Of a DNA stretch of 64,000 bases, positions 28,724 through 48,351 are shown piece by piece. Source of the DNA: an uncultured Patescibacteria group bacterium (GTDB lineage Bacteria; Patescibacteriota; Microgenomatia; UBA10105; UBA927); the NCBI GenBank assembly GCA_937921305.1, contig CAKZSU010000003.1, positions 116,599 through 180,598 of the forward strand, written 5' to 3'. Numbering within the stretch: position 1 is the first letter of the stretch; each line of letters opens with the position of its first letter. The position numbers and the translations under genes are program-made. The notes beneath the pieces were generated by a model, which had not been told where the DNA came from, made no database searches, and worked only from the letters and a program-made list of their open reading frames with translations.

Positions 28724-29503
28724 TCAAGCAGAATACGGATGCCTCCCAAATCTTCTGAGAAGATAATCACGAATCCCCGCCAACGCTCCCCATTCTCTCA
28801 GAGTTACATGCTCAAGAATTGTTTTTGGAAAACGAAGCGTCTCATATATTTTCACAGAAAACGGAGCATTTCGTTCAATAAACAGCAAGTGATTTCTTGC
28901 AAGATAGTATTGATGAAGAAATGGCTTGTTTTGAAATGTCGACGACTCTTTGTGACGGACATCAGACAAGGGAACAACATGAAGAGGAAACCCCTTCTTT
29001 CTTGCTCTTATACAATACTCAACTTCTTCATAAAAAATAAAATAGGGATCATACAAATAGCCAATTGAACTAATAACATCTCGATGAATCGCAAGAAATG
29101 AACCTGACAAAAATTGCATAGGCTCTGGATCTGTTTCCGCCGTCCATCGTTTTGGATCCAATGATCGAGGATATGAACCGGCAAGACCAGGAGAACATCG
29201 AGAAAGAAACTGAATAAATGAATGAACAACATGTTTCGTCATCTGCACATCATCATTCAAGACAACCATCCATTCATATTTATGCGTGTACACATATCTT
29301 AATCCGCGATTTACTCCTCCTGTGTACCCCTTATTCTCTTTATTGGGAAGATAGATCACATGGTCAATCGAGATAGTTTTTTTTGGTGTGTTATCAACAA
29401 GAATAACCGTATGTGGACACAACGAATCGACCAACGATCGAATCTTTGCTTGATCAGGAAAATAGGTGAGGATGATAAACGCTATATCAAGTGATGTTTC
29501 CAT
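28724..29503 (-). CDS. family 2 glycosyltransferase
   Basis: The internal ATG (METSLDIAFIILTYFPD...) fits a GT2 N-terminus; the longer listed ORF overlaps the epimerase. The C-terminal part is typical GT2. Confidence 0.7.
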   Translation of the reverse strand: METSLDIAFIILTYFPDQAKIRSLVDSLCPHTVILVDNTPKKTISIDHVIYLPNKENKGYTGGVNRGLRYVYTHKYEWMVVLNDDVQMTKHVVHSFIQFLSRCSPGLAGSYPRSLDPKRWTAETDPEPMQFLSGSFLAIHRDVISSIGYLYDPYFIFYEEVEYCIRARKKGFPLHVVPLSDVRHKESSTFQNKPFLHQYYLARNHLLFIERNAPFSVKIYETLRFPKTILEHVTLREWGALAGIRDYLLRRFGRHPYSA

Positions 29504-30498
29504 GTTTCCGGAACTAAATCGTTTTCCAACTCCAACGGAATATATGAGAATAACTTTGGTCCTTGCGTTTTTACCCATGCGATTGTTTCCCGTATGCCGT
29601 CTGTTAATGAAGTCGAAGGACGATAGCCAAGCATCATTCTTGCTTTTGTGATATCGCAATACGCGGAGACAATTTCTCTCGGACGAAACGGAACATACAC
29701 AGGTTCAAATTCCTTAGGAACATCTCCGTCAAACCATGACGAGAGGATCAATAAAGAAAGTTCGTTTAATGTATGCGGCTTGTCTGATCCAATATTAAAC
29801 ACTTCTTGTTTATATTCATCAGATAATCCAGCTTTCACGACGGGAGGAATAAGATCATAAATGTAGGTAAACGCTCGTTTTTGGGCTCCATCTCCATAAA
29901 TGTAATATGGCTTTCCTTGAGATAATCGATTTAGAAAAATCGCAACAACATTTCTATAAGGATCGCTCATGTTTTGCCGTGGACCGTAAACATTATAAGG
30001 ACGAATAATTACATAGGAGAACCCATGAACAGTTGACAATATCCGCGTAACATCCTCCATTGAAGATTTCATCACACCATACACATCTTCCGGTCGTTTC
30101 TCCATCTTTTCTGAAAATGGCGGTGTTTGCGCGCCATAAACGCTGATACTGCTAAATAGAATTACTTTTTGGATACCATGTTTTACACAGGGAACAAGCG
30201 TGTAAAGATATGCTAAATAATTATTTTCAGATGATGATAATGGGGTAAATTGACTTCTTCCTTCAGTCGCATCTGCAGCGAGATGAAAAAGAATCTCTGG
30301 TTTAACTTGTTGTATATAAGTAGCGACAGCATCTTTATTTCTCAAATCAAGATTTGTAAATCGACATTCTTTGTGAATATACGTTTCTTGTCCTCCCGAA
30401 AGATTGTCCACGCCGTATACTTCATCATGATTCGCGATAAGCGCGTCGACGAGATGACTGCCTATAAACCCCGCCGCACCAGTAACAAGAATTTTCAT
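29482..30498 (-). CDS. NAD-dependent nucleotide-sugar epimerase/dehydratase (SDR family)
   Basis: MKILVTGAAGFIGSHLVDAL Rossmann motif and a YxxxK-type SDR core. Confidence 0.85.
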   Translation of the reverse strand: MKILVTGAAGFIGSHLVDALIANHDEVYGVDNLSGGQETYIHKECRFTNLDLRNKDAVATYIQQVKPEILFHLAADATEGRSQFTPLSSSENNYLAYLYTLVPCVKHGIQKVILFSSISVYGAQTPPFSEKMEKRPEDVYGVMKSSMEDVTRILSTVHGFSYVIIRPYNVYGPRQNMSDPYRNVVAIFLNRLSQGKPYYIYGDGAQKRAFTYIYDLIPPVVKAGLSDEYKQEVFNIGSDKPHTLNELSLLILSSWFDGDVPKEFEPVYVPFRPREIVSAYCDITKARMMLGYRPSTSLTDGIRETIAWVKTQGPKLFSYIPLELENDLVPETWKHHLI

Positions 30499-30529
30499 AT
30501 TATTTTTTTAATTTTACTAATATAATGAA

Positions 30530-31336
30530 TCATTTTATAAAGTTTCTATGTATTATTTTAAAAAAAGCAAAGAAATAAATCGAAGATATATATAAAGAGA
30601 AAATAACATGAGCCCTAAAACCTGCCCAACCATCAAGAAAACCTTTACCCCTGAAATAACCACTAAAAAATAGTGAAATGAATTTCGTTAATCCTAAGTA
30701 AAGAAGCCTTAATAAATTAACTTCTTTTTTTGCTAATTCATCTCCTTCAATTTGAATATAAGTTAAAAAATTTTTAAAGTCTAAAAATCTTGCATACTTG
30801 GAGTTTCTTGAAAAATGCAGTATATCTAAGTTTTTATATGCTGTTAGATTATCGGGAATATCTATATGAGGATGTATTGGATTATAGAAATAATAACCTA
30901 TATTTTGAAATAGTCTTAATTGAAAATCTGGATAAAATAAACCATATCTAAAATACTTGCCTTTTCTATAATAATTTCTTCTTGAAAACCAATAACCTAA
31001 TATATTATTGTTTTTTATTAATTTAGGAGTTTCTTTTATTAAATCTTCACTCAATGACTCATCTGAGTCTAAAAAAAATATCCAGTTATACTTCGCATTC
31101 TTCAATCCAATATTTCTTAATTCAGAGTGATTTAATTTAGTATCAACCTTTATTATTCTTATTTTAGAGTTACTTTTTAAATTTGATGATAATATTCCTA
31201 TAGTACCTAAGCTTTGAACTATTATTATTTCACTACAGAAATTCATAAGAGATTTTATTGAATTTTCAGTTAAAAGATCATACACGTGAGTAATAATTAT
31301 TCCTGTTATTTTTTTTTCATGAATTTTTTTATACAT
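30530..31336 (-). CDS. family 2 glycosyltransferase in a strongly AT-rich segment
   Basis: GT2-like N-terminal half (IIITHVYDL...FFLDSDES). Local GC is far below the window average. Confidence 0.6.
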   Translation of the reverse strand: MYKKIHEKKITGIIITHVYDLLTENSIKSLMNFCSEIIIVQSLGTIGILSSNLKSNSKIRIIKVDTKLNHSELRNIGLKNAKYNWIFFLDSDESLSEDLIKETPKLIKNNNILGYWFSRRNYYRKGKYFRYGLFYPDFQLRLFQNIGYYFYNPIHPHIDIPDNLTAYKNLDILHFSRNSKYARFLDFKNFLTYIQIEGDELAKKEVNLLRLLYLGLTKFISLFFSGYFRGKGFLDGWAGFRAHVIFSLYISSIYFFAFFKIIHRNFIK

Positions 31337-31406
31337 AAACTAATAAGAAATTTTGAAATTGTCTTTTAATCTTTTTTTCATCTTCAAATTTTATAATTAA
31401 AGATTT

Positions 31407-33687
31407 ATGAAAAAGTTAATACTAAAATTAATAGCTTTAGTTATAATTTTTAATTCTTTTATTTTTTTAATTTTTCAAACTAAATTAAAAGCATCATCAA
31501 ATTTTGTAAAGCATGCTAATAATCCAATAATATCATTTTAAAGCCTACAACCTTCAGTTATTTACTCAAATAATAAATTCTTAATGTGGTTCAATTCAGG
31601 AGGAAGTATTTATTATGCAACATCTACTGATGGAATTAACTGGGAACTTTACGCCGGTAATCCGATATTAACTCCAGATGGTAATCCAAATGAACAATAT
31701 ATTACTGAGCCAAAAGTTATATACGATGAAGGAGTATATAAAATGTGGTATACGGCAATACCATCCTCGAATGTTTATTACATTAGATATGCAACATCAA
31801 GTGACGGAATAAATTGGATAAAAAGTAACCAAACTGTGAATTTACCTCAACAACAGTGGGAAGGACCATCAAGAGCTTATCCAATGGTTTTAAAAGTAAA
31901 TTCGGAATATAAAATGTGGTACACAACAAATGATGGAAGATAAGCTATGCCACATCAAGTGATGGCATAAATTGGATACCATATCCTGCAAATCCAGTTT
32001 TAATTGCTGATCAACCTTGGGAAGGTAACGATGTGGCCGGTGCAAGCGTCATATTTAATGGAGAAAATTATGAAATATACTACGCATCTTCAGGAAAGAT
32101 ATCTTATGCAACTTCTACTGATGGAATTAATTGGTTTAAACAATCAGATAAAAATCCAGTTATAGGACCAAGTGGTGGATGGGATACAAATCAAATAGCA
32201 CCAAGTGCAATAAAATTACAGAATGGAACTACATTGTTGTACTTTTCAAGTTATGGAGAAGGACTATGTAGAATCAGCCTAGCGTATAATGGGCCGATAG
32301 AAGCACCGACACCTACACCAACCACCTCCCCCACCACCTCCCCATCACCCACGCCAACACCCTCTTCATCCCCAACGCCATCGCCTATCACAACGCCGAC
32401 AGCCACTCCGACGCCAGCGCCTGTTACAAAAGCTATTATTATTCCAGGATTTGGAGCAAGCTGGAACAGAGACGCGTTGCTTGAATGCAAGTCAGAAAAT
32501 TATGCTGAGGCATGGACGCTGAATGATCTTGCCGAAGATATCTATCGTCCAATTCAAGCATCGCTTTCAAACAACAATATAACACCAATGCTATTTGCCT
32601 ATGATTGGAGAAAAGATGTGCGAGAAACATCTAGAGCGTTGCAACAATTTATCGAAGCAAACACGCTTGAAAATGAACGCGTCCACATTATCGGGCACAG
32701 CATGGGAGGACTCGTTGCTCGAGCGTATCTTGAACAAACTATGAACAACAACAAAGTTAGTTCGCTTGTAACTGTTGGCTCTCCACATCAAGGAGTAGCG
32801 TCTGCCTACGCGGCATGGTCCGGAGGGGAAATTTGGAGCAACGATCTTCTTTTCAAAATTTACCTTTCTCTACTCATGAAACGATGTCAACTCAAACAAC
32901 GAATCCCTATTGCAAAAGACGCGGTGCAACAATTTGTCCCGTCAATACGGAATATGCTCCCCACATATGACTATCTTATCAATCATCAAACCAATCAAAT
33001 CATTCCCGTGCATACCATGATCGATCAAAACAATTGGTTACCGAACAATGCGTTCAATGCTCCATTTTACTCTGTATCGATAGGATCAGTATCAGGAAAT
33101 GGATTCCAAACGCTTGAAAAATTCGCGTGACACGAAGAAATAGCATAGATGTTCTCTTTGGTCGATGGAAAGACGGACGACCAGTTCGAAGAATTTACAC
33201 AAATCACGGAGATGGTGCAGCGCTTGCTCAAAGCAGCTTCATACCGAACGCCAATCATCGCACTTTGCAAAAAAACCATACGGACATCATCAAATCTCAG
33301 GAAGGAGTGAGCGCGATTATGGCGTTGCTTGGATTACAATCGTCATCACTGCAAACATTACATATGGCATCGGAACATCAAGATTCAGAGCCACAGTCTG
33401 CTATTGTGATACTCAACGAAAACGGCGATGTATCGTTCATGGAAGAAAACAATCATCTCCAGCGAGGAAAAGATCCATCGATGCTGATCATCGTGAATCC
33501 AAAAAATAAAGAATATAGAATGCGATTCTCGTCACGCAGTAACGCGTCTCGAATTTTTATCGGGCAGTTTCTACCCGAAGATACGATTGTATGGAATGAA
33601 TATACAATCAGAGGAAGTGGGACAAAAAGAGCAACATTTAAATTCAGAATGGAACAACCATCGCACAATCGCCTGTTTGTGGAATAA
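31407..33687 (+). pseudogene. disrupted gene for a secreted BNR/Asp-box beta-propeller / Pro-Thr linker / lipase-like alpha/beta hydrolase fusion protein
   Basis: A signal-peptide ORF (MKKLILKLIALVIIF..., 31407-31538) is ended by an in-frame TAA at 31539-31541. The same frame continues into repeated Asp-box blades (YATSTDGINW four times). A -1 frameshift at ~31935-31940 and a further +1 shift at ~33127 follow. The downstream alpha/beta hydrolase has a GHSMGG nucleophile elbow and a HGDGAA Asp region. Confidence 0.65.
32305..32425 (+). repeat. low-complexity Pro/Thr/Ser linker coding region
   Basis: Encodes PTPTPTTSPTTSPSPTPTPSSSPTPSPITTPTATPTPAP. It coincides with a jump from AT-rich to average GC within the same gene. 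Confidence 0.6.
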
Positions 33688-34256
33688 CAAACATTTTTAA
33701 CCTAAATGATACATATATAAGAGAAATGATATTCGAAAAAACCGCTAATAACCTTGAACCTATATCTAATTGATATTGCTAAAATAGATCTTTAAGTCTT
33801 CTATCCCTCATGCTACTGAAGAAGATGCTTGCTTGCTTTTTGTGTGAATTCCATTAAAAAAGTCAAACAATACATATATGATATCAAAAGAAACAAGCAG
33901 ATAGCCGATCTTTGCTTACATAATATAGAAAGATCATAATCTTTAAGTGATGTGAATTTTAGTTTGAACTTATAGCGATGTTGATGTTGTGGATTCCATG
34001 GAAGAAATGGTTCGAAAAAATCTTAAAAAATCAAGAGAAGTAAATGAATACATAAGGAAAAAATGTAGATGATGAATGTATATCAAAAATTGAAGAAATA
34101 CGCTTAATGAGGTATTCATCGAAGTCCTTTTTACTAAGGAAAACTAAACACAAAAATTGTTAAGATAAATGATTATAATTTGATTTTTTGCAGAAAAAAC
34201 AATCAACGCATCGTTTTAATCCAAATAAGAATGCAAGGGACAACGAAATTTGGCAA

Positions 34257-34616
34257 TTACCAAACAAATAAAGAAATGAATTGTTTGACTGAAAACAGAA
34301 GGTTGTTTTGAGGAAACCAGTCAAGTCCAAGCATCATTGAGAACATCCATGCTGCCACAACAAGAACGACAACAAGGCTCACCGTAAGATATTTCTTCAA
34401 AAAGAAAGATGATGCCGCGACAATGATGCATGCGATACCGTAGAGCGGAATAAAATATTTGAGAATCAAAACATAGTGACTGTATAAAAAAGCTAAATTG
34501 TGCACGGTGTTCTCAAATATCGAAGATACTACAGAAAGCAAGAAATACAATAAAGTCTGAATGAACTGAACTGAAGCAAGCGGAATAAGAAGAGCGAAAA
34601 GCGTTTGAACAAGCAA
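34257..34616 (-). CDS. hypothetical small membrane protein (4 TM)
   Basis: 119 aa, four hydrophobic helices, no known motif. Confidence 0.35.
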   Translation of the reverse strand: MLVQTLFALLIPLASVQFIQTLLYFLLSVVSSIFENTVHNLAFLYSHYVLILKYFIPLYGIACIIVAASSFFLKKYLTVSLVVVLVVAAWMFSMMLGLDWFPQNNLLFSVKQFISLFVW

Positions 34617-34739: not shown

Positions 34740-34993
34740 TTTAATATATCATCATTATGATGATTAGAGCACATTACTAACGTTACCGAACTCATTAAAT
34801 ATCTTGCATTTGCTCGTAAACATGTTCTTCTTTATTTTTTAATTGCTTTTTGCTTATAAGATTATATCGGATAGACACATTTGATATAAAAACTTTTTCA
34901 GCTGATCATGCAGTTGTAAGAAATTTACTGATCTATCACATTAACTCTGGTATTCTCATTGACCATTTTGATTATATCACCTACACTAAAAAT

Positions 34994-35560
34994 ATGGAAA
35001 TTGTCAAAAAATTAATCGCGTGGATTTTCGATTTTCTTCAATCTATTGTGGTTGTCATGGCGATCCTTGTCATGATTTACCTCTTCATTATTTCTCCTCA
35101 AGAAATTAGCGGCGATTCCATGTTTCCCACATTTAAAAACGGCGAATATATTTTAACCAATAAAGTGGAATATAAATTGCATGAACCGCAACGAGGCGAT
35201 GTTATTGTCTTTAAATCTCCAAAAAATAAAGATATTGACTACATTAAACGAATTATAGGAATTCCCGGAGATACAGTTTCGTTGCGAGATGGCAAATTTT
35301 ATGTCAATGGCGAACTCCTCGATGAACAGTATCTTCCACCATATATCTACACCTTCGCTGGATCATTTATGAAAGAAAACATGGAAGTAACGGTCCCTGA
35401 GGGATATTACTTCGTCGTTGGCGATAATCGACCGAATAGTTTAGATTCGCGAGAATTTGGATTTATCCCAAAACAAGATATCATCGGAAAAGCGTTCTTC
35501 AGATATTGGCCATTTGAACGAGCGGGATTAATTAAAAATCCAAATGTGGAGAAAAAATAA
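34994..35560 (+). CDS. lepB: signal peptidase I
   Basis: SPase I boxes: GDSMFPTF, RGDVIVF, KRIIGIPGD and GDNRPNSLDSR. The ATG at 34994 (MEIVKK...) is preferred over the listed upstream start. Confidence 0.85.
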   Translation: MEIVKKLIAWIFDFLQSIVVVMAILVMIYLFIISPQEISGDSMFPTFKNGEYILTNKVEYKLHEPQRGDVIVFKSPKNKDIDYIKRIIGIPGDTVSLRDGKFYVNGELLDEQYLPPYIYTFAGSFMKENMEVTVPEGYYFVVGDNRPNSLDSREFGFIPKQDIIGKAFFRYWPFERAGLIKNPNVEKK

Positions 35561-42079: not shown

Positions 42080-42345
42080 TTTTACCTCCTTATCAATGCG
42101 ATTCAATACTATATACTTTAAACGCGTATCACAAAAAAGCCGCTCTCCTTTTTGCGAAGGACGAGCGGACACACTCGTGGTACCACCTTGCTTCGTTTTA
42201 CCGAAAGATATAGTAAAACCTCATTGTATAGCTATTACGGGCATACCCGTCAGGGTCTACTCTCCTTCTCGGATTTCTTCCTGAGGCTCGTTCCGTGATT
42301 GCGGAACTCAAACGCCGTTATTTTTTTGTATATTTACACTATACC
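42080..42345 (-). promoter_or_regulatory. T-box riboswitch leader of ileS
   Basis: On the minus strand there is a T-box sequence AAGGUGGUACCACGAG (plus 42174-42195). It is immediately followed by a terminator hairpin and U6 (plus 42133-42168). An upstream Stem-I-like region holds GGAGAGUAG and an AUC triplet (GAAAUCCGAG) as candidate Ile specifier. Confidence 0.6.
42133..42168 (-). terminator. T-box attenuator terminator (intrinsic) upstream of ileS
   Basis: RNA: CCGCUC G UCCUU CGCAAA AAGGA GAGCGG followed by CUUUUUU. The 5' arm can alternatively pair with the T-box sequence as an antiterminator. Confidence 0.55.
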
Positions 42346-42828
42346 ACATCCTTTCCATATTCGTCTATCCCATCAATCATTTCTATCAAGGATATTGAGT
42401 TGATTATCTTACTCTTTGCTTCACTTTGCAAAAAATTTTTTGTTTAAATCTTTCTTTTGATTCAAAACATACTTTCATAAAAATGTACAATACAAGAAAT
42501 CTCAATAGAGTATCGCGTGAATTATTTCGTTATTTATTGCAACTCATGCATGAGAAATCACTTACTTTAAATAGTAGATATCATTATAGCTAGGTAAGCT
42601 ATTCTTAAAATCATTCTTCACTCAATTGAGCGATAAAAATCGATTGAATTCGATCAATAAGTTCTTGAAACGAATATCGTTGAATAATAAACACAAATCA
42701 ATACAATCTTTCCATTCTCCTTCTTGCTGAATCAAGAAAGGAGAGTTCATCGTTTAAATTATTAAAAAATCTCGCATTACTTGTAAAACTTTGTGAAGAA
42801 CAAAAAAATGAATACTAAAAAGAAAAGT

Positions 42829-45800
42829 TTATTCTCTGACAAAGAGTATAAAAAACAACGAAACAGGGAGCAATCCAAATCCTATCCACTGCAACAATTG
42901 CGGAAGAAAAAATAAAATGATTGTTCTTTGCTTTGAAGAGGGCGAAAGCTCCCACCCATTCGCCCAATTATTGACAAGCACATGATTTCGTAACGGTTTT
43001 CCAAAAAGAAACGGAATCATCCTCCCCAACGATGAATCAATTTCATATGCTTTCCATCCCGAGTGAAATGATTGATATAACGCAAGAATTCCTTTCTCCT
43101 CTTGCGGAACGAGAGAAACAACATAATATGTTGGATAAGGATGAAATACATCAGGGGCAACAAATGTATGAGGAACAAATTCTCTCTTTTCTTCTTTTTG
43201 CACCATCAAACCCATCATCCATAAATAAGGGATTTGATGAACAACAACACGATGCAATTCATTTCTTGTTTGCTCATTACCAATAGAAAGATTATCAAAG
43301 TTAATCGTATATCCAAAGCTATATGGTTCTTGCGGTGGGATCACAAAGTGATTCGTAAAAATATCTTTTGCTGATTGAGGTTCTAAATAGGTGTCATAGA
43401 GCAATCGTTTTGTTTGGTGATTTGTAATTGAGATAATCAACGGTAAATTTTCTATATGCTTTGAATCAACAGTAACCACATATCCCTGTCGTTGCAGAAG
43501 AAATGGAAGAAAAAAATCAATACAATTGCTTGAATGAAGACTCGTTAGCGTAAGAACATTTCGTTGTTTCTCTTTTCTTACCTCTTGCATCTTTACTCCA
43601 TCATTAAATGCATCGCATGTTTTCGGTTCTCGAATAAAATTATTCCACGCGTCGCTATTGTAGCTATACAATCCATATACTTTCGGCACATGAACAACAA
43701 TCCGATCACTCAATCCATCGATAAGCATCGTCGCTCCTTTTGTTGCAGTGTCAAAAGAAAGATCAATCACTTTCTCACCATAGACAATACGAGGAAAAGA
43801 ACGATACGTAATTCTATCGTCATCAATCGTAAGCAATGAATCATGATCAAATGGAGGAATCGTCATCACCCCACGAATATCCTTTGAAAGAGATGCTGAA
43901 AATTCGTAACCCTGATCATATTCTTGAATAGTTATCATTCGATCTTGAATCATTTTCCCAGTGAACAAAGAACGAAATGGAAAATATATATCTGGATAAC
44001 CTGTCGATGTTTTATATGGACCAATCATCTCAAACGCCTTATCGATATCCATCGTAATCGCTTTTGGCTGAACTTCCGGAAGTGAAGTAACAAAAGAAAC
44101 ATGCTGATTTGCGCGTTCAGGTCGAACAATACGATAGATATGAATCGATCCAAAGACGCTCTGCTTCTCAAAACGATCATCTTTCACATCTCCATTCAAC
44201 AATTTCTCAAGTGTGAACGATCCAGATTCTTTATCGTGTAACACGATGTTTGTATCTATGAGTAGCCAATCAATCGCGTATTTCCGCAACACTCCATGAA
44301 ATCGATCAATCGAACCCTCCGCCAACGCTTGCGTGCTTTCCCAATAAAAATTTTCGTTATGATAACTCCACGGATCGAATGCGCGATCCATAATCGGCTG
44401 AGGAATACCAAACCATTGAAACCCAGACCCGATCACCCCCCAGCGATACTGCGTCCACGCCCAATACCAAGGAGCTGGAAAAACAGCAATGCGTTGATCA
44501 TATCGTTGCTCTTGAAAAAAACGAAACATATCAAAATATTCCCGAGGAATCGCTACACGAAGATTGCTATGTAAAAAGTGTCCTTGAAACGATGGAAGTG
44601 TTAAAAGGAAAAGTAACACGCTAACAACTGCATGAGCAGCAACAACTATTAATTTTCTTTTTTCAATAAACTGAAAGAAAAACAACAATCCAATTCCAAA
44701 CAACAACGAGAATACCAAACTATACGAGATAAAAAATTTTGTATATACAAATCGAAAGATAATATGAACAAGAGGAAACAACGATCGAATCGCAGTATTT
44801 GCTTGCTCAATCAACGGGATATTATTCCCAATAACAAATAAACTAATAAAAAACCAAAGAACAAGAGGAACACCAGAACTTTGTCGCTTAATCACAACGC
44901 TACCTATCCCTACTATAACAATGCCAAAAACTATCCATCCAATCGGTTCATACCATATCTGAGATAGATGCTCCCGCCATGGCTTCATCATGTAATCAAC
45001 TACTCCTGTAGTATGATCAAGCTGCACAAACTCCAAACTAAAACTCTTTAACAGCGCAAAACTTCTCACATCTCCATATTCATGATTTTTTAAATAAATC
45101 TCATGACTTGCTCGCTGATTATTTTTCGAATTTGCAATGATATGGGCGTTATGTATTGTAGAAGCAATATACGGAAGCCCCCAAAACGCATTTGCAAAAC
45201 ATATTAAGAATATACTGACGAAAACTGGCTTTGGAGATCGTTTTGCTGAAATATGATGAAAAAGGAATACAAAAACAAACATGGTATATACAATAAACAC
45301 TGTTGGGACATGCGCCATCGGCGTAGCAAGAAATGATATAAGAAGAAAGAAAAACGACCGCTTCACGGAAATACGATCCAACAAAAGCGCAAGCCCAAAC
45401 AAAAGCCAAGGCAACCATCCAAAATAAGCGATAAACGGCTCAAAAGGAAGATAAAACATCTGCACAGTTGCAAAATTATATTGATATACTAACGCTGATA
45501 ATGCACCAACAGACCGAACAAATTCTTTTTGTGGATGATTTCGAAATAAAAAAGAGAAAAGAATATAGACTCCTATCCCACCAAATGCATGCATGGAAAA
45601 AATAAAGACATATCGAAGGAGATGGTGGGGGAAAAATAGGGACAACAAAAATATATAAACATAATGAACAACATTTGCAGCGTGCGACATTCCATCCTCT
45701 AAACCAAGTCCTCGATACTCTTGCCAAACACTGGTCAACGCACGAATGATATTAAGGGAAAAATGAAATTCAGGAAAATTATTATCCCACCCAACAACAT

Positions 45801-45915
45801 ATGTTCCGGAAAGATAGTTCTGAACAAATAGCGTGAGGCTTAAAAAGATGATAATAAAAAAAGGGCAATACCGAATAATTACCCTCTGAAGAAATCTCTT
45901 CATCAATTTAAGCAT
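42829..45915 (-). CDS. 1028-aa polytopic membrane protein with large extracytoplasmic C-terminal domain (GT-C-like glycosyltransferase candidate)
   Basis: ~13 N-terminal TM helices (~450 aa) followed by a ~550-aa soluble domain. ATG start. The adjacent GT2 gene supports a glycan-assembly role. Confidence 0.4.
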   Translation of the reverse strand: MLKLMKRFLQRVIIRYCPFFIIIFLSLTLFVQNYLSGTYVVGWDNNFPEFHFSLNIIRALTSVWQEYRGLGLEDGMSHAANVVHYVYIFLLSLFFPHHLLRYVFIFSMHAFGGIGVYILFSFLFRNHPQKEFVRSVGALSALVYQYNFATVQMFYLPFEPFIAYFGWLPWLLFGLALLLDRISVKRSFFFLLISFLATPMAHVPTVFIVYTMFVFVFLFHHISAKRSPKPVFVSIFLICFANAFWGLPYIASTIHNAHIIANSKNNQRASHEIYLKNHEYGDVRSFALLKSFSLEFVQLDHTTGVVDYMMKPWREHLSQIWYEPIGWIVFGIVIVGIGSVVIKRQSSGVPLVLWFFISLFVIGNNIPLIEQANTAIRSLFPLVHIIFRFVYTKFFISYSLVFSLLFGIGLLFFFQFIEKRKLIVVAAHAVVSVLLFLLTLPSFQGHFLHSNLRVAIPREYFDMFRFFQEQRYDQRIAVFPAPWYWAWTQYRWGVIGSGFQWFGIPQPIMDRAFDPWSYHNENFYWESTQALAEGSIDRFHGVLRKYAIDWLLIDTNIVLHDKESGSFTLEKLLNGDVKDDRFEKQSVFGSIHIYRIVRPERANQHVSFVTSLPEVQPKAITMDIDKAFEMIGPYKTSTGYPDIYFPFRSLFTGKMIQDRMITIQEYDQGYEFSASLSKDIRGVMTIPPFDHDSLLTIDDDRITYRSFPRIVYGEKVIDLSFDTATKGATMLIDGLSDRIVVHVPKVYGLYSYNSDAWNNFIREPKTCDAFNDGVKMQEVRKEKQRNVLTLTSLHSSNCIDFFLPFLLQRQGYVVTVDSKHIENLPLIISITNHQTKRLLYDTYLEPQSAKDIFTNHFVIPPQEPYSFGYTINFDNLSIGNEQTRNELHRVVVHQIPYLWMMGLMVQKEEKREFVPHTFVAPDVFHPYPTYYVVSLVPQEEKGILALYQSFHSGWKAYEIDSSLGRMIPFLFGKPLRNHVLVNNWANGWELSPSSKQRTIILFFLPQLLQWIGFGLLPVSLFFILFVRE

Positions 45916-45927
45916 AGCACAGATTTC

Positions 45928-46845
45928 TTATGACTTCTGAACAAGAAACGCGAGAGAACGATGTTCATGGTTCCAAAGTTTCCATTTTATAAGAGACGTC
46001 TTTGCCATTCCGCGAAGAAAAAGATATATTGGAACAATCAATTGTTCCGGCAATAAACCGACAATGACGCATTGAACGGCAAGCACTATCCATGCACGCA
46101 AGGACATCCGATACTGAAATTTTTGTATCGCGGAAAGTCTAATTCGGACAGAGTTCCAAAACTTCTTTTTTGGTTCTTGTAGCGAAGCATTTTTACCGTG
46201 GACGCGATACGCGATCAATTTCTCGGGTAGATTATGAAACAATCCGATGTGAAGAAACCTAAAAAATGTGTAGTAATCGTCGTTCACATCCCAAACCATT
46301 TCATAAATTTTTCTTTTCCGTGGAAGAAACGATCGGCGAATCATCACCGACGGATGAACAATCGGGTGAAGAATACCATACTGTTCATAAATCGCGTCAT
46401 GGTTGATTGGAAATCGTTTTTCCCCAATAATTGTTCCATTTTTATCGATAATATCCGCTTGTGTTCCTAAAACAAATACATCCGGATGGCTCGTCATGTA
46501 GGTTACTTGTCGCTCGATGCGTTCCGGGTAGGATACATCGTCCGCATCCATCCTTGCGATAAACTCGCCTCGAGCAAATTGAACGCCATAGTTCATTGCG
46601 CCGTTGCCCGCGGCGTTTGTTATTCGCTTTGTACGAACCGCGCGAATTTTTTTAGGAAATCGTCTCGCGTAGTCTTGAAGAATCTCCCACGACCGATCTG
46701 TCGAACGATCATCAACGAGAATAATCTCTACATTTGGATATGTTTGACGCAAGAGACTGTCAATAGCTTCCGCGACATACGCTTCTGCGTTATGCACCGG
46801 CATAATCACAGAAACAAGCGGTAATATATTTGTAATAGTTTTCAT
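45928..46845 (-). CDS. family 2 glycosyltransferase with C-terminal TM segment
   Basis: VSVIMPVHNAEAYVAEAIDSLL...ILVDDRSTD...ARMDADD. The ATG at 46845 is preferred over the listed TTG. Confidence 0.8.
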   Translation of the reverse strand: MKTITNILPLVSVIMPVHNAEAYVAEAIDSLLRQTYPNVEIILVDDRSTDRSWEILQDYARRFPKKIRAVRTKRITNAAGNGAMNYGVQFARGEFIARMDADDVSYPERIERQVTYMTSHPDVFVLGTQADIIDKNGTIIGEKRFPINHDAIYEQYGILHPIVHPSVMIRRSFLPRKRKIYEMVWDVNDDYYTFFRFLHIGLFHNLPEKLIAYRVHGKNASLQEPKKKFWNSVRIRLSAIQKFQYRMSLRAWIVLAVQCVIVGLLPEQLIVPIYLFLRGMAKTSLIKWKLWNHEHRSLAFLVQKS

Positions 46846-47039
46846 ACTATATATGTCATACAAACTTTTACTATTTCCTCCATATTCAACGCATTGAATA
46901 CAGAGGAAAAACGAGAACGCAAAAAGAAGAAGACAACAAAAAAAACGTAGATCCTATGCAGCATAGAGCATAGGCACGTCTTCCATTTGCTTCTCTTGCT
47001 TACGTTTTTCCACAATAACGACCGGGAAGTCACTGTACT

Positions 47040-47099
47040 GCCTTATCTGCAGACGCGGATATCGATATTTTTATCGAAACCCACTGCGCTTTATCGCAG
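47040..47099 (+). repeat. left copy of an imperfect direct repeat bounding the GC-rich island
   Basis: GCCTTATCTGC...GCGCTTTATCGCAG. It matches the right copy GCCTTATCTGCGCTTTGCAG (48751-48770) apart from a 35-nt internal insertion with its own small palindrome. Confidence 0.35.
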
Positions 47100-47146
47100 A
47101 ATATTCAGCCTTGGTGACTCCCAGCCGCGTTTGCTATGATGCTACC

Positions 47147-47836
47147 CTATTCGGGCAGCTTCGCGAAGGAGAATCCGGATGCGTTGCCGCGGTTGCAGCG
47201 GACAAAGATCCACGATTCGCCCTTTCCGAGCGTCTCTTCGACGCGGAGCGATAGAATGTTTGCTCGATCAACGAGCAACGTGCCGGTGTCGAAGGGGTGC
47301 TTCCCATCGTAGTTGTGAAACACCATGCACTCAGGGCCCACAAATCTGTAATGCCCTGGATGCAATGTTAGAGCAACCTCATGCGCCTCCCTACCTGGGA
47401 AGGGGAGGCACGGCTGGTACCACCAGCCGTTCGGCTGCAAGTCAGAATAGCCGGACTGCAACGGGTCGTAAACGACCAGATAGTCATTGTGGCCATTGAC
47501 CCCGTTGACCGTCGCGTAAAACACCTGCCCCCCATTAAGGACAGGTACGACCCTGCCGTTCGAGCAGGTTACCTGCCGCGTCGGCTCCGCCACGTTGGGG
47601 GTGGTAGGTTCGGGAGTAGCCGTGACCACCACAACGTTGGGCGTTGTAGGTTCGGGAGTAGCCGTGACCACCACAACGTTGGGCGTGAGGGTGGGGTTAG
47701 GCAGGGTAGGGGTGGAAATGGCGCTCTGCGCCATCTCGCCGATGGTCTGCCCCTGCTGGAACTGAGGCGAGCAAGCAGCGACTACAAGCACTGCTACCAT
47801 ACAAACCAGGAAAACCAGGATTCGTGTGGGTTTCAT
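47147..47836 (-). CDS. lipoprotein with tandem Pro/Thr-rich repeat and Cys/Trp/Gly-rich C-terminal domain (GC-rich island)
   Basis: RBS GGAGAGGGG then ATG (MKPTRILVFLVCMVAVLVVAAC with a VAAC lipobox). Two 14-aa repeats (TPNVVVVTATPEPT). No known domain. GC is well above the window average. Confidence 0.6.
   Translation of the reverse strand: MKPTRILVFLVCMVAVLVVAACSPQFQQGQTIGEMAQSAISTPTLPNPTLTPNVVVVTATPEPTTPNVVVVTATPEPTTPNVAEPTRQVTCSNGRVVPVLNGGQVFYATVNGVNGHNDYLVVYDPLQSGYSDLQPNGWWYQPCLPFPGREAHEVALTLHPGHYRFVGPECMVFHNYDGKHPFDTGTLLVDRANILSLRVEETLGKGESWIFVRCNRGNASGFSFAKLPE
47604..47687. repeat. 42-bp tandem direct repeat (2 copies plus partial) inside the lipoprotein gene
   Basis: GTAGGTTCGGGAGTAGCCGTGACCACCACAACGTTGGGCGTT at 47604-47645, repeated at 47646-47687. 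Confidence 0.7.
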
Positions 47837-47859
47837 TTTTCCCCTCTCCTTATACTTAC

Positions 47860-48351
47860 TCATGGATTAGACTGTGATTGCGCTTGATTGTGAGTGCTAT
47901 GGTCGCCCTTCTTCTTTGAAAGAGCAACCAAATAGACGATGCCCACCAGCACAAAACCGACGCAGATATTAACGAGTTGTTGAAGAGTCAGCGTCGGTAC
48001 GACAAACATGATAAAACCCGCCATCGCCAATACGGCAATGACGAGTTTGCCAAAGTTCTCGCTCTTCACGAGCGACAGCCTCATACTCTCTGGAATAAAC
48101 CAGGCGAGGATAGCAAACATAGCTCCTCCCCCAAGGACAAGTCCCCACCACGGGTTAGAGGCAACTACTTGCGATGCGTAGAGCGAAAGCAGAGCGGAGC
48201 CAGCAGCAAACTCAGACTTACTGAGGAGCTGTATAGCTTTCTGATCAGTCAACCCTCGGATGAGGTATCCGAGGAATGCCATAACCCCAATGATGGTATA
48301 GATCCACCATTGGGTAGTGAGGTAGTTCATCCACTGCTCGATCATGACCAA
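47860..48351 (-). CDS. hypothetical 4-TM membrane protein (GC-rich island)
   Basis: 163 aa with four hydrophobic helices. Its stop overlaps the upstream region of the lipoprotein gene. Confidence 0.5.
   Translation of the reverse strand: MVMIEQWMNYLTTQWWIYTIIGVMAFLGYLIRGLTDQKAIQLLSKSEFAAGSALLSLYASQVVASNPWWGLVLGGGAMFAILAWFIPESMRLSLVKSENFGKLVIAVLAMAGFIMFVVPTLTLQQLVNICVGFVLVGIVYLVALSKKKGDHSTHNQAQSQSNP

Follow-up and report, generated by a model that had tools for sequence, protein, structure and literature searches.

A probable recent gene loss beside an inherited low-GC glycosyltransferase gene in a Gottesmanbacteria-type bacterium

Variable glycosyltransferase genes of low GC content are familiar from the O-antigen and capsule loci of bacteria, and bacteria of the Candidate Phyla Radiation (CPR) depend on external lipids. 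In this paper we analyse a stretch of 64,000 nucleotides, hereafter the window, from an uncultured Patescibacteria group bacterium (GenBank assembly GCA_937921305.1, contig CAKZSU010000003.1, positions 116,599 to 180,598). It contains an intact gene for a glycosyltransferase of family GT2 and, divergent from it at 31407-33687, a broken fusion gene whose product would have joined a propeller to a lipase-type alpha/beta hydrolase. The propeller is similar in fold to the enzymes of family GH130, in which an aspartate (Asp142 of BT3780, in the motif E-D-P-R) is invariant (PMC4599007).

We consider it highly probable that the fusion gene was inactivated recently and is now the pseudogene of a positional orthologue, that is, of a gene found at the same place in related genomes, and that the GT2 gene is an inherited low-GC allele in a variable slot. 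The trough in GC content at this locus would then come from a glycosyltransferase allele that was inherited, rather than from a new insertion or a faulty assembly. Such a result has little direct consequence: it records how a CPR population of the Gottesmanbacteria type cleanly and recently lost a gene, and it resolves the mechanism of every mutation involved. The locus also draws attention to a widespread, uncharacterised family of secreted proteins, in which a GH130-like propeller is fused to a lipase, encoded in Gottesmanbacteria at a conserved position beside a variable glycosylation slot; this family is a candidate for interaction with the surface or with the host envelope.

The fusion gene and its three lesions

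Translated in three frames, 31407-33687 reads as one long gene with three interruptions, which after repair would encode 762 amino acids (aa). Its parts are as follows.

31407-33687, plus strand: probable fusion pseudogene, comprising a signal peptide, a GH130-like propeller, a Pro/Thr linker, a lipase-type alpha/beta hydrolase and a C-terminal beta domain
31407-31493, plus strand: Sec-type signal peptide (MKK, hydrophobic core, KLKA/SS cleavage), predicted from the translation and conserved in family alignment A1
31494-32299, plus strand: five-bladed GH130-like propeller, assigned from Pfam PF04041, a PDB profile match and the AlphaFold (AF2) model of the closest orthologue, P0001
32300-32425, plus strand: Pro/Thr/Ser-rich linker of GC content 0.48-0.50, recognised in the translation and alignment, with low predicted local distance difference test (pLDDT) values in the P0001 model
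32426-33330, plus strand: lipase-type alpha/beta hydrolase domain, with the Pfam families LCAT, PGAP1, Palm_thioest and Abhydrolase_1 above their cut-offs
33390-33684, plus strand: C-terminal all-beta domain, the family's most divergent part (strands 669-750 in the P0001 model)

This architecture agrees with what had been read from the sequence alone, namely a secreted multidomain protein with a signal peptide, a propeller with Asp-box-like repeats, a Pro/Thr linker, a GHSMGG hydrolase and a C-terminal domain. The propeller contains four copies of a 43-nt coding repeat for YATSxDGINW, an Asp-box-like motif (repeat family D1). The GHSMGG nucleophile elbow lies at 32693-32710, with its Ser codon at 32699-32701; a candidate Asp codon stands at 33211-33213 and a candidate His codon at 33277-33279. 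The corresponding residues, S432, D603 and H625, are invariant in family alignments A1 and A2 and would form the catalytic triad. The C-terminal domain is only 27-29% identical to those of P0001 and P0002. In the hydrophobic core of the signal peptide, at 31461-31469, the window has an in-frame insertion of 9 nt that is absent from L006, L007 and L009.

The lesions were placed by nucleotide alignment with intact close relatives, which share 83-88% nucleotide identity with the window.

31539-31541, plus strand: lesion 1, a nonsense codon TAA replacing the Leu codon TTG of the intact L006, L007 and L008; present in L001-L003
31925-31943, plus strand: lesion 2, a 7-nt deletion between 31931 and 31932 relative to L006, L007 and L009; present in L001-L003
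33117-33121, plus strand: lesion 3, a homopolymer deletion from A6 to A5 relative to the intact L090; present in L001 and L002

At lesion 1, TCT TTG (Ser-Leu) has become TTT TAA, so that two codons are altered. At lesion 2, where L006, L007 and L009 read AATGATGGCAGATGGAAGATAAG, one copy of the tandem GATGGCA/GATGGAA is gone (AAT GAT GGC AGA TGG AAG minus seven bases); the result is a -1 frameshift, from frame 0 to frame 2 at 31931-31940, with a premature TAA at 31941-31943. Lesion 3, at which L090 reads CTTGAAAAAATTCG (LEKIRVTRRNS) and the window CTTGAAAAATTCG, is likewise a -1 frameshift, from frame 2 to frame 1 at 33117-33127, followed by a premature TGA at 33128-33130. The contig L090 was found through a homologue of a small neighbouring open reading frame (ORF), and not through scans of genome and metagenome contigs with the lipase half, which returned no close relative; on it, the 3' part of the fusion gene is intact over 343 codons, at 88% DNA identity to the window. 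The sequence-only reading had reported the TAA, the -1 shift at about 31935-31940 and a third lesion near 33127 at their correct places, but had given the third a sign of +1.

Three independent and mechanistically ordinary mutations account for the present sequence: the change of a Leu codon to TAA, the slipped-strand loss of one copy of a 7-nt repeat, and the loss of one A from a run of six. They truncate the product after 44 codons, and they leave the Ser in one frame segment and the Asp and the His in another. Given so early a stop, and a Ser thus set apart from the other two residues, we infer that no secreted, active enzyme is made.

Before accepting the lesions as mutations we must ask whether the gene might be intact in the cells, the lesions or the GC step being an artefact of sequencing, assembly or chimera formation. 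The window is derived from a metagenome, lesion 3 falls in a homopolymer, and one Logan contig ends at 31955, beside lesion 2, all of which would fit such an artefact. However, the exact GT2 protein also occurs in ENA ERZ6864144 (on a 565-kb contig), Logan ERR9287890 and Logan ERR9287621, and these three assemblies align with the window without gaps, at 99.95-99.97% identity. They differ from it by 4-11 single-nucleotide polymorphisms (SNPs), and so the assemblies are not copies of one sequence; yet each of them (L001-L003) carries the TAA and every frameshift within its span. Since four assemblies distinct in their SNPs share the lesions, we conclude that the lesions are not assembly errors. 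Moreover, the TAA requires two substitutions and lesion 2 is a deletion of seven nucleotides, neither of which is typical of sequencing error; the contig end at 31955 lies four bases from a strain SNP at 31959, which accounts for the break; the remainder of the 64 kb is dense, intact coding sequence; and the GC profile over the supposed junction recurs in the relatives. An artefact is thus very improbable, and of the two possibilities put forward from the sequence alone, a decaying pseudogene or a stretch of poor assembly, it is the pseudogene that stands.

It is also conceivable in principle that the gene is expressed despite its lesions, by read-through of the stop together with two -1 ribosomal or transcriptional slips, or that it is switched on and off at its repeats. 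Two of the lesions do lie at slippage-prone sequences, the tandem heptamer and the A-run. Against this, the intact relatives need only one frame to encode the same residues, neither site has an X_XXY_YYZ heptamer, and neither a run of A5 nor two copies of a heptamer is long enough to slip efficiently; expression would, besides, demand all of three independent events. In addition, TAA is the commonest genuine stop in the window: the 48 large ORFs end in TAA (23), TGA (19) or TAG (6). As all three stop codons end large ORFs, a recoding of TAA, which had already been thought unlikely, is not credible, and we assign programmed recoding or phase variation next to no probability. Returning to the pseudogene, we find no other evidently broken gene in the window, where ORFs of at least 150 aa leave a long gap at this locus and nowhere else.

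The SNPs themselves deserve a brief remark. Of the 11 by which L001 and the window differ over 20.8 kb, three are located in the pseudogene (2.3 kb), at 31959, 32269 and 32711; the first of them changes Ser to Asn in a blade motif. This slight excess is consistent with relaxed constraint, the numbers being too small for a test. The product of a 365-aa ORF of the locus has no exact match in the databases, because of the strain SNPs at 32269 and 32711.

Intact relatives and the low-GC slot

A search with the frame-corrected protein, which had been proposed from the sequence alone, does find intact orthologues, among them syntenic ones. Homologues of the repaired protein number more than 1,500. 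Among the best 120, the majority are intact, with 730-810 aa and the same architecture, and more than 100 intact homologues of 730-810 aa align over their full length with the frame-corrected translation. Where the source is named among the best 120, it is nearly always Candidatus Gottesmanbacteria. An alignment-based genome scan returned relatives of at most 39% identity, from Gottesmanbacteria, together with lipase-only relatives in Shapiro-, Woese- and Amesbacteria. The intact form is a secreted protein of about 760 aa that is conserved in Candidatus Gottesmanbacteria-type genomes. We propose that the intact family may be a secreted or surface-tethered lipase or acyl-esterase, whose propeller would bind a surface or host glycan. 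No paralogue of the fusion gene was found in the window, and no papers on lipases in Gottesmanbacteria were found in the literature. Among loci L010-L089, many metagenome-assembled genomes that are GTDB representatives and encode this protein of Gottesmanbacteria/Microgenomates type are labelled 'uncultured Gammaproteobacteria bacterium' ('binchicken' and other co-assembly names), which look like placeholder or wrong labels.

The following features bear on the surroundings of the gene.

30530-31336, minus strand: intact GT2 gene of 268 aa (Pfam PF00535, E 2e-10), with GC content 0.237 and GC content at third codon positions (GC3) 0.156
31337-31406, no strand: AT-rich divergent intergenic region of 70 bp, in the same arrangement in L004-L009 and L091
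34665-34739, minus strand: tRNA-Val(GAC), conserved in position in the relatives and not an island boundary

The order of genes at the locus is PMT_2, GT4, methyltransferase, GT4, (in L004) GT87, a further GT2, epimerase, the slot, and then the divergent fusion gene, after which come a small membrane ORF, tRNA-Val, signal peptidase, ParB and L27. The same order is found in L004 and L005, the contigs that encode P0001 and P0002, and L091 and JGI 3300075153 have the same arrangement. At least four positional orthologues are intact: those of L004 (761 aa), L005 (781 aa), L091 (775 aa) and JGI 3300075153 (811 aa). The flanking proteins of L004 and L005 are 45-81% identical to those of the window. 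The gene thus keeps a fixed position: a surface-glycosylation cluster is transcribed away from it on one side, and tRNA-Val, signal peptidase and ParB lie downstream on the other. Only the slot between epimerase gene and fusion gene varies: it holds the AT-rich GT2 gene in the window, a Glyco_transf_17-type gene (GC 0.31) in L004, and four methyl- or glycosyl-transferase genes (GC 0.30-0.38) in L005.

The GT2 gene itself has homologues in sister lineages, with 79-81% identity to P0122 and P0123 and 57% to P0124 (contigs L006, L007, L008 and L009). Over the GT2 gene and the propeller half, L006 and L007 have about 83% DNA identity to the window, and L009 has 68%; short-read contigs of relatives break at the Pro/Thr linker. 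In L006-L009 the GC content of the GT2 gene is 0.24-0.27 and rises through the propeller half to 0.34-0.39, with the propeller frame intact.

In order to describe the composition of the window we used 300-bp windows for the locus and 800-bp windows for the rest of the 64 kb as reference. GC content falls from about 0.38-0.40 to 0.17-0.25 between 30500 and about 31700, stands at 0.32-0.36 through about 31550-32300, peaks at 0.48-0.50 in the Pro/Thr linker and is about 0.42 downstream. Outside the region the reference windows have a mean of 0.420 (standard deviation 0.037, minimum 0.319). Compared with these, 30530-31700, at 0.225-0.237, has a z of about -5, and it has the highest tetranucleotide deviation in the window; its boundary at 30500-30530 is sharp. 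The GC and k-mer profiles that had been suggested as a check on the sequence-only reading do therefore deviate, and the drop in GC that it described is real, although extreme AT-richness ends near 31700 and not near 32280. In essence, the AT-rich block consists of the intact GT2 gene, the promoter region that the two genes share, and about 250 nt at the start of the fusion gene. A scan for promoters and terminators was uninformative, with fewer promoter-like matches than in shuffled sequence.

The shift in composition within one reading frame had been taken as a sign of a recent mosaic or horizontally acquired gene. The same gradient, however, is found in intact orthologues and in sister lineages: L004 and L005 have low-GC slot genes, and in both the propeller half of the fusion gene has less GC than the lipase half. 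Because intact orthologues have the step at the linker as well, it gives no evidence of a recent chimera.

We can ask further whether these genes have a common history by comparing their rates of substitution. We computed synonymous divergence (dS) and the ratio of nonsynonymous to synonymous divergence (dN/dS) by the Nei-Gojobori method, between the window and its sister lineage.

GT2 gene: dS 0.45-0.53, dN/dS 0.19-0.24
Propeller half: dS 0.53-0.59, dN/dS 0.13-0.16
Lipase and C-terminal half: dS 0.54, dN/dS 0.10
Signal peptidase: dS 0.36, dN/dS 0.05
ParB: dS 0.69, dN/dS 0.014

From GT2 to ParB, all genes have dS of 0.36-0.69. This uniform dS, along with the low dN/dS of the broken gene, argues for vertical inheritance followed by recent inactivation: the region diverged as a whole, and purifying selection acted on the fusion gene for almost the entire period. 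The GT2 gene is intact and under purifying selection (dN/dS about 0.2, full range 0.19-0.27). As it is found in sister lineages with an unchanged composition and with the same dS as its neighbours, its inheritance has been vertical for that long, and a fresh insertion is excluded.

These results bear directly on the idea of a recent horizontally acquired island, by which the AT-rich segment and the broken gene would have been inserted together from an AT-rich donor. The strong GC deviation with its sharp boundary, and the tRNA-Val gene nearby, are what one would look for in an island. Yet the fusion gene is a syntenic orthologue; sister lineages have a GT2 gene of the same composition, whose dS matches that of the backbone; no integrase or transposase was found flanking the segment; and a search for flanking direct or inverted repeats gave only the blade repeats and AT-rich low-complexity matches. 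The tRNA-Val gene, for its part, is conserved in the relatives and lies beyond the far side of the fusion gene. We therefore give a recent island very little credence. As for what had been claimed earlier, the idea of an inserted segment carrying the fusion gene must be given up, whereas that of a mosaic AT-rich segment survives in part: the slot that holds the GT2 gene is variable, but the GT2 gene is shared by sister lineages and the fusion gene is syntenic.

Several observations nevertheless weigh against recent inactivation of a vertically inherited gene beside an inherited allele. The raised dN/dS that is expected of relaxed selection is not seen: the values in the broken gene, 0.10-0.16, are close to that of the propeller in the intact pair L006-L007 (0.12). 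Pseudogene status is thus founded on the lesions and on nothing else, and the lesions in turn are supported by assembled sequence and not by reads, in four assemblies that may share one study and one sequencing platform. The GC3 of the GT2 gene stays at about 0.156 across lineages at saturated dS (about 1.4 to L009), which vertical inheritance with amelioration does not account for. Finally, roughly equal distances separate the window, L009 and L004 in the proteins GT4a, GT4b, GT2x and MT24 (53-70% identity), but in the propeller domain the window and L009 share 64%, against 45-49% with L004; this discordance with the flanking genes hints at older recombination.

One way to accommodate the last of these points is an old exchange of a cassette, in which the slot glycosyltransferase gene, the promoter region and the propeller half came by homologous recombination from a lower-GC, Gottesmanbacteria-like donor. 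We regard this as possible but doubtful, and the same holds, as a tentative suggestion, for its timing before the split of the window, L006/L007 and L009, with a breakpoint near the Pro/Thr linker. Besides the discordance just described, the lipase domain follows the ranking of the flanking genes (52% identity to P0001 against 43% to P0002) and the propeller does not; the slot gene differs between the same lineages; GC content has its minimum in the slot gene and at the 5' end of the fusion gene; and P0013 and P0020, which share a slot arrangement, are 48% alike in their N-domains and 39% in their lipase domains. On the other hand, the comparison involves few taxa and pairwise identities of 35-65%, not trees, and the L009 data cover the propeller half, the lipase half being absent. 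Across the 69 full-length family members of alignment A2, moreover, the pairwise identities of propeller and lipase correlate weakly (Spearman rho 0.17), so that the discordance may be noise or rate variation; and a difference in GC content between propeller and lipase is present in every orthologue, and may reflect amino-acid content. Such an exchange is compatible with inheritance and recent inactivation, to which it would add an earlier event, and it leaves our verdict unchanged. In slot-sharing genomes (P0013 and P0020; the window and L009), propellers are more similar than lipase domains.

More speculatively, the slot glycosyltransferase and the propeller half may be exchanged together as one cassette; the propeller would then recognise a glycan, either that of the adjacent cluster or one of the host, to which it would be matched. 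We think this improbable. We hold out similarly small hope for the second part of this idea, that the propeller would tether an extracellular lipase used by lipid-auxotrophic episymbionts. Were the cassette idea true, the gene loss seen here would mark a change of host or of surface chemistry.

Neighbouring features of the window

Two further features follow the pseudogene directly.

33688-34256, no strand: AT-rich non-coding tract, free of ORFs longer than 49 aa and without a match in Rfam
34257-34616, minus strand: gene for a small hydrophobic (membrane-type) protein of 119 aa, with one homologue, P0162 (133 aa, 66% identity)

The tract had been noted from the sequence alone as a gap without ORFs, and such it is. 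At both gathering and E-value thresholds Rfam finds nothing there except the tRNA-Val nearby, tblastn with the small ORFs of relatives finds no remnant in it, and it has no similarity to L004 or L005. From 33896 onward, for about 360 nt, it aligns at about 74% with the shorter spacer of L090 (reverse complement 1033-1398), and about 190 nt, 33705-33895, are specific to the window. These comparisons indicate that the tract is a lineage-specific spacer. The 119-aa ORF is a real, conserved small gene: its homologue P0162 stands at the same position in L090, with dN/dS of 0.32.

Two ORFs of the mechanical list near the locus appear to be too long. At 28724-29659 a 311-aa ORF overlaps the epimerase gene by 178 nt; identical contigs call a product of 259 aa there (start near 29503), which matches orthologues of 258-280 aa. 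The signal-peptidase ORF at 34850-35560 (236 aa, TTG start) is probably overextended at its 5' end, as its relatives have 187-190 aa and start with MEI(V/L)KKL, equivalent to about 34994 in the window. With this shorter start, more non-coding sequence surrounds tRNA-Val than would appear from the ORF list.

Elsewhere in the window, 46750-48350 is a GC-rich patch (1-kb GC 0.55, compared with about 0.42), second within the window in tetranucleotide deviation, and its two minus-strand ORFs (47147-47863 and 47860-48351) have no Pfam match. The same is true of a 1028-aa ORF at 42829-45915 on the minus strand, which lies in a stretch of GC 0.34-0.36 (42173-45915); adjoining it is a gap of 656 bp at 42173-42828, of GC 0.32, without an ORF of at least 150 aa.

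Comparison with known systems

The propeller had been described as a four-blade BNR propeller with YATSTDGINW repeats. The four repeats are indeed present, but the model of P0001 (pLDDT 90.9) has five blades, and Pfam, sequence search of the PDB and Foldseek all point to a five-bladed GH130-like fold. The fusion protein has no Pfam BNR match at E <= 0.01, whereas PF04041 scores 41.8 bits on the propeller against a cut-off of 26, placing this half in the Glyco_hydro_130/GH32N clan. A profile search of the PDB returns GH130 beta-1,2-mannan phosphorylases, with 9fj8 at E 1e-22, and Foldseek matches the P0001 model to 9fj8 with a TM-score (TMt) of 0.74 and E 1e-16. The top 50 Foldseek matches of this model belong to GH130, GH43, GH32 and GH117; a search with the whole model is dominated by the propeller, so these matches reflect the propeller and not the lipase or C-terminal domain.

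The known enzymes nearest to the propeller are thus the GH130 mannoside phosphorylases and mannosidases (Teth514_1788, 9fj8; Teth514_1789, 7fip; BT3780), with which it shares the five-bladed fold and the PF04041 score above cut-off. It differs from them in several respects. Identity is about 25%, and the fusion protein is secreted and joined to a lipase. In a hidden Markov model (HMM) alignment at this level of identity, the column of the invariant Asp contains Glu in the window, Ala in P0001, Gly in P0002 and Thr in P0003, and Asp in 32 of the 69 family members. Since this column is not conserved, the propeller is GH130-like in fold but lacks that mark of membership, the catalytic Asp being often absent. 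The sub-lineage of the window also lacks the blade-1 'WDxxxV' stretch. By these sequence comparisons, the propeller is probably a binding module or a different enzyme.

With the BNR/Asp-box sialidase propellers the fusion protein has in common the repeated S-x-D-G-x-x-W motifs on its blade hairpins; unlike them, its model is five-bladed and GH130-like, and not of the six-bladed sialidase fold. The hydrolase half resembles LCAT and LPLA2 (group XV phospholipase A2), PGAP1-like proteins and lipases of the Bacillus LipA type, in that it has the GHSMGG elbow and, throughout the fusion family, an invariant Ser, Asp and His. The Pfam families LCAT, PGAP1 and Palm_thioest score above their cut-offs, and matches in the PDB, to LipA (1i6w) and LPLA2 (4x90), are weak. 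In contrast to these lipases, with which the matches span only ~60-100 residues around the nucleophile, the fusion family has a large insertion specific to its lineage and, at the C-terminus, an additional beta domain.

As for the slot, it may be likened to those O-antigen and capsule-type loci that contain low-GC, variable glycosyltransferase genes: here, too, an intact glycosyltransferase gene, far below the genome in GC content, stands where relatives have other glycosyltransferase or methyltransferase genes, in a cluster of GT4, GT2, epimerase and PMT_2 genes such as is found in surface-polysaccharide loci. The present case differs from them in that it concerns a CPR bacterium, and in that the same low-GC allele persists across lineages whose dS is saturated.

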